Virus record (IMG/VR): IMGVR_UViG_3300017747_002624
Coordinates: 1-36,878 of that record
Length of the DNA stretch: 36,878 nucleotides
Strand: one strand, 5' to 3'
DNA from: a virus
Taxonomy: Duplodnaviria; Caudoviricetes
The notes under the pieces were generated by a model, which saw nothing but the letters and a program-made list of their open reading frames with translations, made no database searches and was not told the DNA's origin. Both the position numbers and the translations under genes were made by a program. Position 1 is the stretch's first letter. Each line of letters starts with the position of its first letter. This document shows, piece after piece, positions 3,646 to 36,878 of the stretch.

Positions 3646-4052
3646 ACCCCTCCCTCCGCCTGCTCCTCCTCTCCGCCGCGCTCTCGGCGGGATGTACCGC
3701 ACCGCTCAAGGCGACTGCTCCCGAGGGTTGGCCGGAGCTTCAGACCATCGAGCGGCTGAACGTAGCGGCGGAGGAAGTGTCTGCGGCGTGCGACACCACC
3801 GACCGGATCGCCGCGTGCTCTCGGGTGAACTTGTGCGCCAAGACCTGCACGCAGTATTACCGGGAGGGCCAGGATACGCCCGCCATCCGCGAACACGAGA
3901 ACGCGCATTGCAAGGGCCGGGATCATTGGTTCTCAAGCGTGCTGGCGGATCTGCTGGCCCGATGGAAGCGCGGAGAGGAATGCTCGGGCGGCGTGTCGAA
4001 GCAGGACCACGACAACGCGGGCGCGGCGTTCACGTTGATGCTTTTACTTTGA
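3642..4052 (+). CDS. Putative lipoprotein with HExxH motif
   Basis: Signal peptide ending LSAGC; Cys-rich; HENAH. Confidence 0.55.
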   Translation: MNPSLRLLLLSAALSAGCTAPLKATAPEGWPELQTIERLNVAAEEVSAACDTTDRIAACSRVNLCAKTCTQYYREGQDTPAIREHENAHCKGRDHWFSSVLADLLARWKRGEECSGGVSKQDHDNAGAAFTLMLLL

Positions 4053-18498: not shown

Positions 18499-19965
18499 TT
18501 ATGCAGCCTTCCTTTCCGTTGAAATCTCCCGCGCAACATGCGGCAGGAGTCCGTCGCCGTGAACCGTGATGACACAGCCCGCAGCGACCAATTGCCTGGC
18601 CAACTCTTGAAATTCCTGCGCCTGGGCGATCATCCAAAGCGCCGAGCGAAACTTTCGACCACCAGCCACGCAATCGACCACGCGGTCCGCGTCGTTCTGC
18701 GGCTGATCGTAGGCGTGGTGATCGGCGGCGAAGCTCGAATCCATCCCGTACAGGTGGAACGTGCGATACCCGAGGCAGTACGCGGCAGCGATGGCCTGCA
18801 ACGCCACGGTGGAGCCGCCTGACAACAGGTTGACCGCGCCCCGGTTTTGCGGGATGTGATCGAGCACCCCTGCGGTGTTGCTGTGCATGAGAACGATCGG
18901 ACACCCGTTCACCGCCTCAAACAGGCTTGAATCGCATTGGGAGGCCATCAGGTAGGTCGTGCCGGAATCGCGCTGCACAAACGCGAGGTTTTCCGGGCGG
19001 GCGTCCATGAGCACGTGATATTCCGGCTGCACCCCTGCGGCTTTCAGGAACCGGAACGTGTTGTTCGTGGCGAATACCGCGTGGCCATTGTCGGTCCAGT
19101 AAGGCAGCTCGTGCATCGTCTCGCGCAGCGAAGGTCCACCACCGACAATCACCGCATGCCGGTCGTGCGCCTCCATGCGGGGCAACCACGGAACCGATAG
19201 GCTGCACGCATGGCGGATGTTCGCGGCGAGTTTCTCGTCCGCCGTGTTGCACACCGTCGCCAGTTCCCGAGCACTTCCGCCGCCTTTCTTCCAGATCATC
19301 GGCACCCATTCGCCGCCCGCGTTGTGCGGACGCGGCTCGCCGTGAAAGCACACCACCCGCGCCGAGCGGGGAGGATTCGGGCGGCAATGCGCCTTGAAAG
19401 AGACGAACACGCCCGGAAAGATGTCTTGCAGGATCTCCGGCTGCGGCGGCGTCCAATTCACCACATGCGGATACCGGGCGTCCTGATGGGATCGGAAGTA
19501 GTTCTCTAACCATTCCTGATCGCCCCGCGCCAGATGCGGTTTACCGGCATAAACGAACTCGCGCCAGATTTCGGTCCCGTAGCCGCCGCGCCAAAGCATG
19601 ACGGCAGGGCCGAGGCCCTCAGGCCGGTAGAAATCGCGCAAGGTGGAGAAGTCGCCTTCGTACTTGACCACATCGTCCAGCGGCCCGGTGATGAGCGTAT
19701 CAAGGTCAAGAAACATGACCCGCTCGCCGTCCTTGAACACGCCCGGCTTGAACAGGTACAGCTTGTTGTGCCAGCCCTCCAGATCGCCGGGAACCGGGCG
19801 CGTCTCTATTCCCTCATCCAGTCCGCGAGCGTCATCGGTAAAGCACACAAAGCGGCCTTCAAAACTGTCCGGCAGGTTTCGCCGCACCATGTCGAACAGG
19901 ACGTTCACGTACTCCGCGCCGCGCCCGAGGTAGTTGCTCACCTGAACACAGCAAACGGTCAGCAT
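18499..19965 (-). CDS. Two-domain glycosyltransferase: GT-A domain fused to a Maf/DUF115 (MptE-like) domain
   Basis: N-half FVCFTD, GWHNKL.LF, FLDLD (DxD), GDQEW, VCFHGEPRP; C-half AVIVGGGPSL, P.YHVLMDAR, GGSTV, LGYRTFHLYGMDSS. Confidence 0.8.
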   Translation of the reverse strand: MLTVCCVQVSNYLGRGAEYVNVLFDMVRRNLPDSFEGRFVCFTDDARGLDEGIETRPVPGDLEGWHNKLYLFKPGVFKDGERVMFLDLDTLITGPLDDVVKYEGDFSTLRDFYRPEGLGPAVMLWRGGYGTEIWREFVYAGKPHLARGDQEWLENYFRSHQDARYPHVVNWTPPQPEILQDIFPGVFVSFKAHCRPNPPRSARVVCFHGEPRPHNAGGEWVPMIWKKGGGSARELATVCNTADEKLAANIRHACSLSVPWLPRMEAHDRHAVIVGGGPSLRETMHELPYWTDNGHAVFATNNTFRFLKAAGVQPEYHVLMDARPENLAFVQRDSGTTYLMASQCDSSLFEAVNGCPIVLMHSNTAGVLDHIPQNRGAVNLLSGGSTVALQAIAAAYCLGYRTFHLYGMDSSFAADHHAYDQPQNDADRVVDCVAGGRKFRSALWMIAQAQEFQELARQLVAAGCVITVHGDGLLPHVAREISTERKAA

Positions 19966-20609
19966 GTGACCTCCAGCGCCGAGCGTACCCGCGCCACATC
20001 CGCCGCCCTGCCGTTCAGTTTCCAGTCCTCGTACAAGGACTGATCCGCGCCGACATGACCGCGCTCGAACACATCCTTGTCGCCCGTCACGGTGAAATGC
20101 AGATGCCGGGTGATGACTTCCGGCACATAGACCAGCGTATCGCCCACGTCCTGGGCAATGTCGCGCAGAAGGTTGTCCCAGTAGAAATGCCCGAAAGCCG
20201 GGTGCGCAATCCACCCCAAGGCGCGGACCAGCTCGCCACCGATGCAGGGATGCCCAATCGGGGGATTCGGACGCATCAGGTTGTCACCAAAAGCGATCTT
20301 CCAACTGCCTGCCGCGTGCGCCAGAGCTCGGTCCCATTCGGGCGTCTCCGGAACGCAGTCATCGGCCATCAGGAAGTAACGCGGCTCGCCCGGCGCGTAG
20401 AAGAACGCTCCGTCGTTGTACTTCTTGCCCACGAGCGACGGCGCGACCTCGACATGCCGCCAGTTCGCCGGAAGATCCACGCTCAGATACGCCTCCCGGT
20501 CTCGCGGCTCGGTCATGAGCAGCCCCGGCTCGGTCGCCTTGGTCGCGGCGTAAGCGTCGAAAAACCGCTTGAGCTTTTGGGGGCGTCCTCGGGAAGGCAG
20601 CAATATCAT
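19959..20609 (-). CDS. GT-A fold (GT2-like) glycosyltransferase
   Basis: ILLPSRGRP start, LMADD, WD, H.YWDN, V...HLH; AAGGA RBS. Confidence 0.75.
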   Translation of the reverse strand: MILLPSRGRPQKLKRFFDAYAATKATEPGLLMTEPRDREAYLSVDLPANWRHVEVAPSLVGKKYNDGAFFYAPGEPRYFLMADDCVPETPEWDRALAHAAGSWKIAFGDNLMRPNPPIGHPCIGGELVRALGWIAHPAFGHFYWDNLLRDIAQDVGDTLVYVPEVITRHLHFTVTGDKDVFERGHVGADQSLYEDWKLNGRAADVARVRSALEVTC

Positions 20610-31555: not shown

Positions 31556-31884
31556 TTCACGATCTCGCAATTTTCCCAATAAACCTTTGGGCGTTTTACG
31601 GTGTGAACAAAACCCCATTGCTCGCTCAGATTCTTCTTGAGCAACCTTCGGATGACTTCACGCGCTTGGCAAAATTCACTCCAATCACTCGCGTCTATTT
31701 CCAAGGCGCTTATGACTTGGGGCGGGGATGACTTGACGCTCCAAGTGGCTTCTTTATCCTTGCATTTCTGCTTTCCTTCCGCATCGCGCTGTCGAATCGC
31801 GTTCGCGATTTCAAACAACCCCATGCCGACAATGCTTGCGATGAACACAAGCCCAAAAAATACGCCAATGGCAATCGATGTCAT
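31549..31884 (-). CDS. Hypothetical protein with N-terminal TM helix
   Basis: Hydrophobic first 25 aa; lower GC; GGAGG RBS. Confidence 0.6.
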   Translation of the reverse strand: MTSIAIGVFFGLVFIASIVGMGLFEIANAIRQRDAEGKQKCKDKEATWSVKSSPPQVISALEIDASDWSEFCQAREVIRRLLKKNLSEQWGFVHTVKRPKVYWENCEIVKK

Positions 31885-32249
31885 GCGTGCGCCTCCTCGA
31901 ACAGCGGCGGAGCGCTCGGCTCCATCGCCAGAATCTCCACCTCCAGCCGCGCCCCCTTTCCGTCCGGCTCGGCCCGGTCCGCTACGATGCGATGCACTTG
32001 CGCGTCATCCCCGTAGCCGATCCCCTTCAGCGCGTCCAGCGTGACCTTCAGCGCGTTGTCGAGGTCGATGCAAATGCGATTCTTCGGGACCAGGCGGATG
32101 CGCATCTCGACGAGTCCTGAGAACGGCGAGCGCAGGCCCGATGCTTTCGCGATCCGGCCCACTTCGGACTTGTACGCCTTGGCCTCGTCGCTCACGACCA
32201 CGATGACGCGAAACCAGTAATCCGGGGGGACAATGGGGGCGAGAGTCAT
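31881..32249 (-). CDS. rusA: RusA-family resolvase with chimeric N-terminus
   Basis: SDEAKAYK...DLDNALKVTLDALKG..YGDDAQV; first 17 aa shared with the HTH protein. Confidence 0.8.
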   Translation of the reverse strand: MTLAPIVPPDYWFRVIVVVSDEAKAYKSEVGRIAKASGLRSPFSGLVEMRIRLVPKNRICIDLDNALKVTLDALKGIGYGDDAQVHRIVADRAEPDGKGARLEVEILAMEPSAPPLFEEAHA

Positions 32250-32252: not shown

Positions 32253-32416
32253 GCCTTGAACTTCTCACCGTAGCTCGGCGCGGGACGCGATTCCTCGACG
32301 CGCTTCAGCGCCTCGACCATGCCCCGGTCGTAGCGGTACTGCCCGAACGGGCGCGGTGTCAGGCTGCGCGATACGGCCACGCGACAACCTCGGTTCGTGC
32401 TGGATTGCTCCATCAT
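32246..32416 (-). CDS. Hypothetical 56-aa protein (below the ORF track cutoff)
   Basis: ATGA overlaps at both ends; MMEQSSTNRG...KFKAK. Confidence 0.5.
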   Translation of the reverse strand: MMEQSSTNRGCRVAVSRSLTPRPFGQYRYDRGMVEALKRVEESRPAPSYGEKFKAK

Positions 32417-32766
32417 TCGACTCCCATCGGTAGCACTTCGACCAAAAGCCGCCCTACGCCATCAGGCGGCATCCTCTGCGCGACGATCTTTCGCACCTGC
32501 GAATCGTCCTCGTAGGCGATCCCGTTCAAGGCGTCGATGGTGACCTTCAGAGCGTTGTCCAAGTCCATGCAAACGCCGCTCTTCGGGATCAGACGAACGT
32601 CCAGCGCCACCGCCGAGATCAGCGCAGGCTCGTACAGCCCCGCATTGCGTGCGATGAGCGCCACGGCCTGCTTGTAAGCCTTCGCCTCGGAGGATACGAA
32701 CGTGCGCCCGCGTGCGTTGCGCCAATAGCGATTTGCGCTGATCGGGTAAGGCAGCGTGAGCTTCAT
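32413..32766 (-). CDS. rusA: RusA-family Holliday junction resolvase
   Basis: LTLPYPISANRYWR...DLDNALKVTIDALNG..YEDDSQV. Confidence 0.9.
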   Translation of the reverse strand: MKLTLPYPISANRYWRNARGRTFVSSEAKAYKQAVALIARNAGLYEPALISAVALDVRLIPKSGVCMDLDNALKVTIDALNGIAYEDDSQVRKIVAQRMPPDGVGRLLVEVLPMGVE

Positions 32767-33932: not shown

Positions 33933-34777
33933 CAGGCACCTCCGGGAGCGCGGTTTTGCTCTTTGCTAAGCCAGCCGTTGACAAAGCGCAGCACACCCGA
34001 TTTCGTCTTTCGGCGCGTGGGGTTTGCGAGGCACCAGCCCCGCATTTCGCGCAGGGTCTGAGGCACGTCCAGCGCGGGGTAAAGGCGCTCAAACTCCGCT
34101 ATCAGCGATTTGCGAATGGGGAATTCTTCGCCGGTGTTGAGCGGCATCGACTCGATCGGCGGGTCTGCGGCGTCGAGCGATGAATCGCTCGGGGCTGTAG
34201 GTGTTGACGTTGGTTTTAGGTTTACTTCTCCCTGTCCCTTTACTGTCCCTGTCCCTTGGTGAACGTCGCGTTGTACGTCACGTTCTACGTTACGTTGCTC
34301 GTCGCGTTTGTCGTCACGTGGTTCGTTACGGTCAACGTCACGTTGTTCGTCACGTTGCGTTTGTGCGGCACGTCGTTTGGCTTCGCGTGCTTCCGTCGCG
34401 GCCTTCGTGCGGTTGCGCTGATCGACCTTCGCTTTCCACGATTCGAGGGCCTTTTTGCACACCGTGCGGTGATACAGGCGACCGTCCGAGCACTTGACAA
34501 AGTGGGACAAGGCGCGTTCCTTCACGCGCTTCCATTCCTTTTCGTCGCAGCGTGCAAGGTCGGCCAGAACCTCGTCGTCATCCGGGAGTGATCCGGTCGG
34601 GACTTGATGCCAGGCCTCGCACCAGAGCGACATTGCAGCGTGCGCGACCCTCGGGTCCTTCTTCGCCTTGATCCAGAGCGAGGACGTGAGCAGGGTCCGG
34701 ACATCGAGCGGCATAAAGCCGAAGTCCCGCAGATCAACCTCAGCCGGGACGAGCGGATCGGGGAGAGCGTCGGTCAT
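33932..34777 (-). CDS. Replication initiator, DUF1376/YdaU-like
   Basis: PLVPAEVDLRDF.FMPLDV..L, SLW..AWHQVP.GSLPDDD..LA, SDGRLYH; internal iterons. Confidence 0.8.
   Translation of the reverse strand: MTDALPDPLVPAEVDLRDFGFMPLDVRTLLTSSLWIKAKKDPRVAHAAMSLWCEAWHQVPTGSLPDDDEVLADLARCDEKEWKRVKERALSHFVKCSDGRLYHRTVCKKALESWKAKVDQRNRTKAATEAREAKRRAAQTQRDEQRDVDRNEPRDDKRDEQRNVERDVQRDVHQGTGTVKGQGEVNLKPTSTPTAPSDSSLDAADPPIESMPLNTGEEFPIRKSLIAEFERLYPALDVPQTLREMRGWCLANPTRRKTKSGVLRFVNGWLSKEQNRAPGGA
34264..34359. repeat. Eight 12-bp tandem iterons, probable replication origin
   Basis: CGTCGCGTTGTA CGTCACGTTCTA CGTTACGTTGCT CGTCGCGTTTGT CGTCACGTGGTT CGTTACGGTCAA CGTCACGTTGTT CGTCACGTTGCG inside the initiator gene, next to a T/C-skewed stretch. 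Confidence 0.8.
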
Positions 34778-36234
34778 GCGAAAGTAGCCTTCATCATTCG
34801 CCGAGCAAGTCCAACAAACGCGCAAGCTGCTTGGAGCGCCACGACCTGATTTCCGAGGCTGCGCAGTTGATCTGCTTTGGATTCGTCCACCACCACGGAT
34901 TGCCCTGCAACCAGCCCACGAACGCCGGATTCAGTCGCCGGCGCGAGCCAGGGTTCGTCTCGCACGACGTCTGCCCATCGCGGATCGGTTGGGCCTGGGG
35001 CGAATGCTCCACATAGTTCGCTAGTTGATCCATGTGTTTCCTGCCCCCCCCCTGTTACCAGCGCGTGTTCCTCGCTGTTCGCGCCCTTGTGGTCCCGTGC
35101 CGCGGGTGTCGGCCATGATTTAATCGCGTCCGTCAAAGTTGTCCCGGCATGATGATTCCCATGCCCCCCCTTCGAGCCGTCCCTCGTCGCCGTGTCGTTC
35201 CTCGCTCCAAACGAGTCCGTCACAACAGGCGTCGGCCATGCTTGCGATTGCACGTTCAAACTCGTAATCGTCGAGCGCGGCCCACCTTTCATACGAGCCT
35301 TCATCGCCATGTGTGCCTCCGGCGTTTTGTTGTCGTCGTTCGCCACAGGTGTCATCCATTTATCTGCTTCCCTGTTGAGATCACGATGTCGCCCCCCCGC
35401 TCGGTCGTCCCTGCTCCGGGCGCCTTGTCTCGCGCTTGCGGCGTTGACCAATTCGATGTCATTGCAATCAGCCCCCCCTGATGCGAGGCCGGCGTTACCT
35501 TCGCTCCATCGTCCGCGGCCATCGGCGTTGCCCATGCGCCCACGTCCGCCGCCAGCGTCTTGCCGGTCGTGTTCGCCGTGTAGCTCGCGCCGTTCTTCGC
35601 CTCGGTTGCTCGCGGAGTTCCCCATGTCTTTACTGCCCCCCCCCAACGAGTCCACCGCGCCCGGATGATTCCCGCAGGATTCCGCGTCCTCGGCTCTGGT
35701 GCTGGGCCAAGACGAAGATCCTTTCGCGTTCGTGCGAAGCGCCAACGTCGGCTGCGGCGAGAGAACACCATTCCGCATCGAACCCGAGCGCGGCAAGGTC
35801 AGACAGGACGAGCTCAAGTCCGCCGCCTGAAACAAGTCCAGGCACGTTTTCGAGGAAGACAAGTGGCGGTTCGATTTCTGAAATGAGGCCAACGATTGCG
35901 GGCCAGAGCCAGCGTTCGTCGTCGGTGCCTTGCTGTCGTCCGGCGGCAGACCACGGCTGGCACGGAAATCCCGCCACAATGCAATCCACCGCTCCAGACC
36001 ACATGCGCCAGTCGGCGTCCTCGAAGTTGCCGACGAAAACAGGCGCTGGCTCCAGGGCCTTGTCTGCCATCCGCGCCAGGAGGATGGACGCGGCGAAGCT
36101 TTCCCGCTCACAGTAACCCACCACTTTTGCGGGGCGTCCGAGGAGGCATTCGACGCCGAGTGACAATCCCTCGTCCAGCATTCCGATTCCGCTGCACAAG
36201 GACAGCACAGTGATGGCGGGATCAGCCATGTCAT
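34774..36234 (-). CDS. C5-MTase overlapping-frame polypeptide (beta-type N-terminus, WxTP modules, motif X)
   Basis: 486 aa from ATG 36234; contains WPST, WMTP, WPTP, WPTP and ends with motif X (QLRSLGNQVVALQA). Confidence 0.65.
   Translation of the reverse strand: MTWLIPPSLCCPCAAESECWTRDCHSASNASSDAPQKWWVTVSGKASPRPSSWRGWQTRPWSQRLFSSATSRTPTGACGLERWIALWRDFRASRGLPPDDSKAPTTNAGSGPQSLASFQKSNRHLSSSKTCLDLFQAADLSSSCLTLPRSGSMRNGVLSPQPTLALRTNAKGSSSWPSTRAEDAESCGNHPGAVDSLGGGSKDMGNSASNRGEERRELHGEHDRQDAGGGRGRMGNADGRGRWSEGNAGLASGGADCNDIELVNAASARQGARSRDDRAGGRHRDLNREADKWMTPVANDDNKTPEAHMAMKARMKGGPRSTITSLNVQSQAWPTPVVTDSFGARNDTATRDGSKGGHGNHHAGTTLTDAIKSWPTPAARDHKGANSEEHALVTGGGQETHGSTSELCGAFAPGPTDPRWADVVRDEPWLAPATESGVRGLVAGQSVVVDESKADQLRSLGNQVVALQAACAFVGLARRMMKATFA
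34794..35033 (-). CDS. C5-MTase motif IX-bearing peptide in an alternative frame
   Basis: RRRLNPAFVGWLQGNPWWWT is motif IX-like; AGGA 5 nt before ATG 35033. Confidence 0.6.
   Translation of the reverse strand: MDQLANYVEHSPQAQPIRDGQTSCETNPGSRRRLNPAFVGWLQGNPWWWTNPKQINCAASEIRSWRSKQLARLLDLLGE
35044..35644 (-). repeat. Five poly-G tracts on the coding strand
   Basis: Plus-strand C9 35636-35644, C7 35472-35478, C7 35392-35398, C7 35164-35170, C9 35044-35052. Confidence 0.92.
35352..35635 (-). other. Currently out-of-frame block of three WxTP modules
   Basis: Third frame reads AVKTWGTPRATE...WATPMAADD...WSTPQARD between the tracts at 35636 and 35398. Confidence 0.75.
35630..36229 (-). CDS. DNA cytosine-5 methyltransferase catalytic part (motifs I-VIII), ending right after a G9 tract
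   Basis: LSLCSGIG (I), AGFPCQPWS (IV), FLENVPGL (VI), HERERIFVLA (VIII); stop at GGG GGG GGG CAG TAA. Confidence 0.9.
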   Translation of the reverse strand: MADPAITVLSLCSGIGMLDEGLSLGVECLLGRPAKVVGYCERESFAASILLARMADKALEPAPVFVGNFEDADWRMWSGAVDCIVAGFPCQPWSAAGRQQGTDDERWLWPAIVGLISEIEPPLVFLENVPGLVSGGGLELVLSDLAALGFDAEWCSLAAADVGASHERERIFVLAQHQSRGRGILRESSGRGGLVGGGQ

Positions 36235-36244
36235 CTTGTCCGCC

Positions 36245-36445
36245 CTACTCGCCCGTTTCTTCGATCGTCTTGCCAGCCGAGCCGAGGGATACGCACTCGT
36301 CCGGGGTGGCCTTCTCGATGCTGAAGGACTGGAGCACGTAGCTCTCGACCGACGAGCGACGAGCTGCGCGAACGAGGCGCGGGGATGCGGTGACACCCGA
36401 CTCCTCGCGCGGTTTGACGATGTAGACGGTTCCTGTGGTGCTCAT
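36245..36445 (-). CDS. Hypothetical protein
   Basis: VYIV...RLVRA...A; GGAG RBS; ATGA overlap. Confidence 0.65.
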   Translation of the reverse strand: MSTTGTVYIVKPREESGVTASPRLVRAARRSSVESYVLQSFSIEKATPDECVSLGSAGKTIEETGE

Positions 36446-36834
36446 GCGACTGCTCTCCCTGTGATGAGGTTGCGAAGCAATTTGTTCTCGGCCTCCAAGC
36501 GCTCGCGCTCGAGGTGTTCGACCGCGAAGCGGCGTTCCATTTCGGTCTGGCGTGGGACGAGCGAATAGCCCCGCTGCATGGCCCAGTACGCGAGCGGCAG
36601 ATCGTTCCCGCACTGGTCGAGGAACGACGCGAGGTTTGCGGGCTTCATGCCGACATCGCCCTGCTTGAAGCGGGACCAGGTAGCCGGGTCCATCCCCGCC
36701 GCTGCTGCGGCCTGCTTGTCCTCAAGCCCGCCGAGATCAGCGGCGAGCGTGAAGGCGCGAAGCATGTCTCTCGGGCGCTGGATGATTGACTCGTCCAGAA
36801 ACATCGGCTCACGGGGAAGGACAAGCTGCGTCAT
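36442..36834 (-). CDS. CII-like HTH transcription regulator
   Basis: DKQAAAAAGMDPATWSRFKQG HTH plus coiled coil; directly downstream of cro on the circle. Confidence 0.7.
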   Translation of the reverse strand: MTQLVLPREPMFLDESIIQRPRDMLRAFTLAADLGGLEDKQAAAAAGMDPATWSRFKQGDVGMKPANLASFLDQCGNDLPLAYWAMQRGYSLVPRQTEMERRFAVEHLERERLEAENKLLRNLITGRAVA

Positions 36835-36878
36835 GAGTTGAACGCCAAGAGACTTGACGCGACTTGACGTTCAAAGCG
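36756..36878. repeat. Terminal direct repeat, copy 2
   Basis: Identical to 1-123. Confidence 0.95.

Follow-up and report, generated by a model that had tools for sequence, protein, structure and literature searches.

G tracts in a two-frame phage C5-methyltransferase gene: candidate contingency tracts that may re-route predicted recognition modules and C-terminal motifs

Related methyltransferases and phage contingency loci

Repeat-driven phase variation is well known for bacterial Type I, IIG and III methyltransferases, and SPR and phi3T are among the names given to multispecific C5-methyltransferases (C5-MTases) of Bacillus phages. The locus described here would share with the phase-variable bacterial enzymes the switching of methylation by repeats, but those are host restriction-modification genes and they lack overlapping frames. 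In M.EcoHK31I, a heterodimeric C5-MTase, the alpha chain carries motifs I-VIII as well as motif X, and motif IX lies in an alternative frame of the same DNA (PMC2836561; PMC3404938). Internal Met codons worked as beta starts in this enzyme (PMC2836561), the target-recognition domain (TRD) is placed in alpha, and fragment complementation has been reported (PMC2836561; PMC3404938). Judged by this description of M.EcoHK31I, 184 of the 223 other loci of the family examined here share its layout. The window, by which we mean the whole stretch of 36,878 bases that was analysed, differs from it in that its gene is an orphan phage gene with arrays of WxTP modules in the second frame and with G tracts, and in that its alpha chain cannot reach motif X in its own frame. 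M.AquI is split past motifs I-VIII, its second chain comprising the distal variable region and the C-terminal motifs (PMC3404938), and a like split after motif VIII occurs naturally in 8 of the 223 loci, that of the cultured phage Broseidon among them (L037, L029, L075 and L100 being counted here as AquI-like and not as broken). In the window, however, motifs IX and X are in different frames and hence, unlike in M.AquI, a third chain is needed.

The multispecific C5-MTases of Bacillus temperate phages carry experimentally mapped TRDs in one polypeptide (PMC12707154). The window gene is similar to them in being an orphan methyltransferase of a temperate phage with tandem shuffled units in its variable region, but its modules are predicted from sequence and are located in two-frame DNA. 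Contingency loci of phages include T2 agt and T4 rIIA as well as polyG runs in Fletchervirus receptor-binding proteins and in the methylase gene of Bordetella phage BPP-1 (PMC12633550). These loci likewise involve homopolymer runs and one-base frameshifts, also in DNA-modification genes, but they are single-frame ON/OFF switches, whereas the window has two coding frames and several tracts that would re-route segments. Two-frame C5-MTases, recognition-domain arrays and polyG in phage genes, including the BPP-1 methylase (PMC12633550), are therefore already known singly. The initial annotation of this DNA knew of no described system combining such features, and our search of the open literature (subscription journals and REBASE being outside its scope) likewise found no report of such tracts in a modular methyltransferase that is coded in two frames; the locus is likely a new combination of known parts.

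Reading frames, G tracts and internal starts in the window

Direct terminal repeats bound the window, which is a complete virus record; as it codes for integrase, repressor, terminase, portal and capsid proteins, it represents a temperate tailed phage. The run matching it best is a freshwater metagenome, and 13 of the 15 bacterial genome records with the T5 module (see below) are from Pseudomonadota. The methyltransferase gene is on the minus strand, flanked on one side by an HTH gene (36442-36834) and a further small gene and on the other by a DUF1376 replication gene. The repressor and a divergent cro-like ORF are located upstream of it. The gene thus belongs to the early operon, with a cro/CII-like gene and the replication gene on its two sides, a place that would favour a role in protection during lytic growth over one in the lysogen epigenome. 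A scan of 31 ORFs revealed no restriction endonuclease, and no promoter-like site was found at 34600-36878. The replication gene holds low-complexity repeats at 34230-34360 (minus strand; RDEQRDVD-like, GACAGG units), whose length is not the same in a relative's contig. Elsewhere on this strand are two neighbouring RusA-family genes (31881-32249 and 32413-32766) and, among the virion genes, a 571-aa protein (18499-20214) that combines a glycosyltransferase-like part (phrog_1962) with an MptE-like domain.

The gene carries the C5 DNA methyltransferase motifs I, IV (PC), VI (ENV) and VIII, and family HMMs locate motifs IX and X in two other frames. Its features, all on the minus strand, are as follows.

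35630..36229, minus: alpha chain as assembled, 199 aa, motifs I-VIII, ending just past T1 (PF00145, 1e-27; phrog_363; M.HhaI, 9e-11; TIGR00675 below cut-off)
34774..36234, minus: overlapping +1 frame, 486 aa as assembled, with module 1, alpha-type linker, modules 5-7 and motif X (phrog_1008, phrog_29583)
35636..35644, minus: tract T1, G9; G8 puts the modules in frame, G7 or G10 joins alpha to the modules; followed by ATG 35625
35352..35634, minus: modules 2-4 (W at 35624, 35534 and 35450), an orphaned frame as assembled, with its stop at 35352-54
35472..35478, minus: tract T2, G7, in frame; followed by ATG 35462
35392..35398, minus: tract T3, G7; shifts the alpha-type linker frame onto modules 5-7
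35053..35391, minus: modules 5-7 (W at 35358, 35238 and 35115), the sole open frame there
35164..35170, minus: tract T4, G7, in frame
35044..35052, minus: tract T5, G9; modules joined to motif X; G8 joins modules to motif IX
34794..35033, minus: 79-aa ORF with motif IX (LNPAF at 34934), ATG 35033 lying 10 nt past T5 (phrog_27243)
34774..35043, minus: tail with motif X (LGNQVV at 34857), which overlaps the frame of motif IX (alignment A4)

A genome-wide count confirmed the five tracts at the positions and lengths first given for them, and also that they are the sole G/C runs of at least 7 in the 36,878 bases (C9 at 35044-52 and 35636-44, C7 at 35164-70, 35392-98 and 35472-78); all five read as G on the coding minus strand and fall within 600 bp, and 8 runs of 6 occur elsewhere in the genome. 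The total of five was dropped as significant by itself, as about 2.5 such runs are expected per genome under an order-3 Markov model. Five runs within the 740-bp region were, however, reached in only 0, 3 and 1 of 20,000 codon shuffles for the three frames, and thus the clustering of the tracts is beyond chance while their number is within it, in a window that was chosen for being extreme. This region contains one G4 and no G5 or G6, and its tracts hold five of the six Gly-Gly pairs of the module frame. The tracts are Gly-Gly codons within modules and not, as was first thought, parts of linkers behind WxTP modules.

Homopolymer errors of sequencing or assembly are a very improbable explanation for these tracts, although a frameshift at a homopolymer is the typical error and the platform is not on record for most relatives. 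In run X1, which may be the source sample of the window, a single contig spans 33900-36500 at a depth of 31 with no gap and no difference from the window; this separate assembly, from records of 151 bases, thus agrees base for base at all five tracts. In a second study (run X2) one 151-base contig (depth 3.7) is identical across T1, and runs X3-X7 gave just short pieces of relatives; at the level of contigs, no variation within a population was seen. Such errors, moreover, would not produce the fixed stops described below. Run X1 also contains a contig of a relative, with 13 differences in 90 bases, in which T5 is shorter by one base.

Two frames are open upstream of T1, namely alpha (motifs I-VIII) and +1, and two from T1 to T3, namely that of the modules and that of the alpha-type linker. 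In the part between T3 and T5 the alpha-type frame is closed by three fixed stops (35381-83, 35360-62 and 35120-22), and hence just one upstream chain can cross this part; past T5 the frames of IX and X overlap. The product of the +1 frame is 334 aa when started at ATG 35778. The module that bears T3 has an intact, tract-free copy in locus L442. As originally described, the module-bearing reading changes frame at T1, T3 and T5, whereas T2 and T4 are in frame, and the 479-aa chain (seven modules and IX, from ATG 36234) and the 484-aa chain (motifs I-VIII, modules 5-7 and X) were both obtained again on recomputation. The proposal that G8 restores the module frame holds for the 479-aa chain, but it does not extend to a restored two-chain enzyme: none of 243 frame states from the starts at 36229 and 35778 has both IX and X (8 have IX and 8 have X). 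The all-G8 state was accordingly rejected as such an enzyme; its alpha chain stops at 282 aa and the fixed stops block every tract state. A pair of the M.EcoHK31I type (alpha with I-VIII and X, beta with IX from an upstream start), which is present in relatives L001-L004, is absent from all 243 states. With T1 at G8 the alpha chain has I-VIII and X, yet an internal start is needed for IX, and more generally the missing piece requires an internal start.

The candidates for such starts lie behind the tracts. SD-like pairing of about -11 kcal/mol, exceeding that of the capsid gene, is found upstream of ATGs 35625, 35462 and 35033; for the last, which opens the 79-aa motif-IX frame in all tract states, the pairing is to T5 itself, whereas it is weak for ATG 35116 (motif X). 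The residue at the 35033-type start is Met in 28 of 35 relatives and Leu in 7, one of the seven Leu copies being a +1 tract copy, and Met past T5 was hence dropped as an invariant. With the T5 site excluded, 12 of 29 tracts are followed by an ATG at a distance of 3-11 nt, compared with 44 of 524 G4-G5 runs, although these 29 tracts include homologous copies and are not independent. These observations could be explained if the enzyme is a stable assembly of several chains and its G runs persist because internal restarts use them as ribosome-binding sites (or because they permit some ribosomal or transcriptional slippage at a low level); changes of tract length in the DNA would then be rare events of evolution, and there would be no working switch. 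We consider this quite unlikely. The equal tract lengths of near-identical genomes and a +1 state in L178 despite an interrupted run are in its favour; however, five G would be enough for an SD, and otherwise intact genes that are broken solely at the tract (10 of 15, see below) point to recent slips in the DNA.

The methyltransferase family and tract lengths among relatives

The family set consists of 276 complete loci (224 non-redundant), including four annotated phage regions, and one 18-base signature has matches in about 2,400 viral stretches. Besides the EcoHK31I-like and AquI-like loci, 10 of the 223 loci without the window have IX and X on alpha and 21 are broken. Motif IX is in an alternative frame within the alpha gene in both the window and its EcoHK31I-like relatives. 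Of 158 loci, 127 have an open +1 frame across the catalytic part (at low GC, 63 of 83) and 9 an open +2 frame. The second chain may run the full length of the gene. In the window (35778-36234) an ATG of the +1 frame is found 5 bases ahead of the alpha ATG. In L011, L021, L031, L033, L038, L042, L061, L274 and L320, where IX and X are on alpha, the overlapping frame is a modules-only chain of up to 365 aa, indicating that free module chains occur in nature. In L037 a G10 run (3787-3796) makes an AquI-like pair out of a gene whose alpha chain bears IX and X, and in L432 (phage Jarcob) a frameshift without a G tract, at about 2200, splits the catalytic part, which is annotated as two methyltransferases. 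Broseidon, Alfacinha1/3 and Jarcob have this gene without a tract, and no carrier of the T5 tract was found among the cultured phages and plasmids searched.

Seven modules stand in tandem between motifs VIII and IX in the window. Close copies of module 5 occur in three other loci, close copies of modules 1, 3 and 7 are also found in other loci, and modules recur in unrelated arrays. Among 75 copies of the T5 module, constraint falls on the module frame (third-position entropy 1.39 vs 0.65 bits), and judged from this pattern the module units are under purifying selection. Their position and shuffling suggest a role for the WxTP modules as target-recognition units. For the module chain there was no PDB profile match and no fold match, the latter carrying little weight because the model was poor (pLDDT 59).

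At the T5 site 165 loci were matched, and after leaving out 16 without a scorable upstream module the remainder gave 111 distinct sequences. Among those with at least 7 G, the window included, 13 are out of frame (10 at +1 and 3 at -1) and 18 in frame, whereas the corresponding numbers for fewer than 7 G are 2 and 78; without the window, 12 of 30 tract-bearing and 2 of 80 tract-free distinct copies are out of frame (p 1.5e-6). The tract copies at the T1 site (G7, G7, G8 and G9) represent all three frames, while all 37 scorable tract-free copies are in frame (12 were not scorable). Comparison of homologous loci, which had been suggested as a check, thus revealed tracts at homologous sites with different lengths and in all three frames. 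Breaks affect 15 of the 36 whole genes that have a tract and 6 of the 187 that have none; in 10 of these 15, a change of one base at the tract repairs the gene. All 6 loci with a G7-G9 run in the catalytic part have it in frame (p 0.07), which also argues against homopolymer error. A G9 run in the catalytic coding region is in frame in all of L044, L051, L087, L098 and L183. The tract contexts of L013 and L017 (G11 and G8, both out of frame) are identical at 376 of 390 positions, and a search found no carriers other than these two.

A second multi-tract lineage (L161, L212, L218, L241 and L434-L441) has kept several tract sites. In this lineage the alpha chain ends directly past the T1 site, so that X must sit on a separate chain, and an ATG is located behind the last tract. 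The last tract joins the modules to IX where it is G8 (L439, L437 and L212) and to X where it is G9 (L438, L440, L434 and L441). L439 (G8) and L438/L440 (G9) are identical in the 10 and 12 nt flanking the tract, L437 (G8) differs in the same way from L434/L441 (G9), and the phages showing this IX/X swap are about 90% identical. The expectation that a slip exchanges downstream segments between the two chains, and does not simply truncate them, is borne out both by the computed chains and by this G8/G9 difference. In L434-L441, about 120 bases upstream of the central tract, a conserved overlapping stop-start cuts the module array into coupled ORFs. All tract lengths are equal in near-identical loci (97.5-100%; L434/L441 at 99.9%, L438/L440 at 97.5%), which indicates that the majority states are stable, and in one comparison set no pair above 94% identity differed in tract length.

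It is possible, although in our judgment unlikely, that the tracts are accidental hot spots in a dispensable gene, in which Gly-rich and G-rich two-frame DNA yields G runs by chance and slips persist through decay or near-neutrality. The abundance of tracts bears directly on this. In all loci, a sample enriched for T5 carriers, there are 33 runs of G8 or longer compared with 9 by codon shuffle, but the 99 loci sampled via the catalytic part alone contain 9 runs of G7 or longer compared with 8.7. Tracts are thus above composition in the window and at the T5 site but not in the unbiased subset, where their number equals the null. Intact genes have 16 runs of G8 or longer, which does not exceed the maximum of 17 under synonymous resampling. 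In a tree test that left out six long-branch rows, tract and breakage occurred together in 6.6 vs 1.3 of 15 independent pairs (median p 0.125). With no family-wide excess and a weak tree test, the tracts appear to be a gain of some modules or lineages scattered on the tree and not a family trait. The hot-spot explanation is also favoured by the avoidance of GGG as first codon of Gly-Gly family-wide (69 of 310) and by the excess of +1 over -1 states at T5 (10 to 3), which fits the insertion bias reported for G8-G9 tracts in Campylobacter (PMC3401435). It is further favoured by the three stops of the alpha-type frame and by the nearest relatives: the four closest (59-64% identity) are intact and tract-free, and the seven nearest all lack tracts. 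However, the frames of the catalytic domain, modules, IX and X are all intact, and in the module frame the Gly-Gly pairs are concentrated in the tracts while G5-G6 runs are missing. In addition, at T5 the in-frame Gly-Gly-Gly is GGG-GGG in 18 of 26 copies, as against the family-wide 69 of 310 for a first GGG in Gly-Gly, and it is retained among diverged copies whose third positions nearby vary freely, and the second lineage retains three tract sites and fixed chain breaks at 80-97% identity.

A contingency reading and its implications

On balance, the sequence comparisons slightly favour the view that the five G runs are slippage-prone contingency tracts, re-routing predicted modules and IX/X tails in a two-frame C5-MTase. 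Homopolymers of at least 7 in coding DNA with length variants that change the frame are present between related phages; the Leu behind T5 in 7 of 35 copies and the three alpha-type stops, which also fit decay, count against it. Under this reading, tract length would set which predicted recognition modules and which C-terminal piece (IX or X) each chain receives. The pieces would assemble non-covalently, as M.EcoHK31I, M.AquI and fragment complementation suggest, and internal ATGs behind the G runs would supply IX or X, whichever the long chain misses. The assembled state would give alpha with I-VIII (199 aa), a chain with modules 1, 5, 6 and 7 and X (334 or 486 aa) and the 79-aa IX peptide. 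As all motifs are present in these products, this state need not be OFF and may constitute a full enzyme of three chains. Loss of one G at T1 would yield the 484-aa chain; other slips would bring in or remove modules 2-4 or cost the product a motif (OFF). A likely purpose would be bet-hedging in early lytic growth between restriction systems that spare or cut methylated DNA; a benefit against restriction is suggested by the known role of orphan phage methyltransferases (PMC12707154) and the precedent of T2 agt (PMC12633550).

A stronger version, in which the tracts form a combinatorial switchboard that deals modules and IX/X tails among two to four chains, siblings methylate different motifs and the arrangement arose at least twice in the family, is conceivable but doubtful. 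The hot-spot and ribosome-binding-site explanations are not fully exclusive of the contingency reading.

If the contingency reading is correct, a frameshift in overlapping frames would be a means of domain re-assortment free of recombination, and anti-restriction methylation could be adjusted rapidly through a phage gene that is very common. As the overlapping module frame is unannotated in both of the cultured Acidovorax phage records examined, the family may constitute a large untapped set of exchangeable 5mC recognition units.
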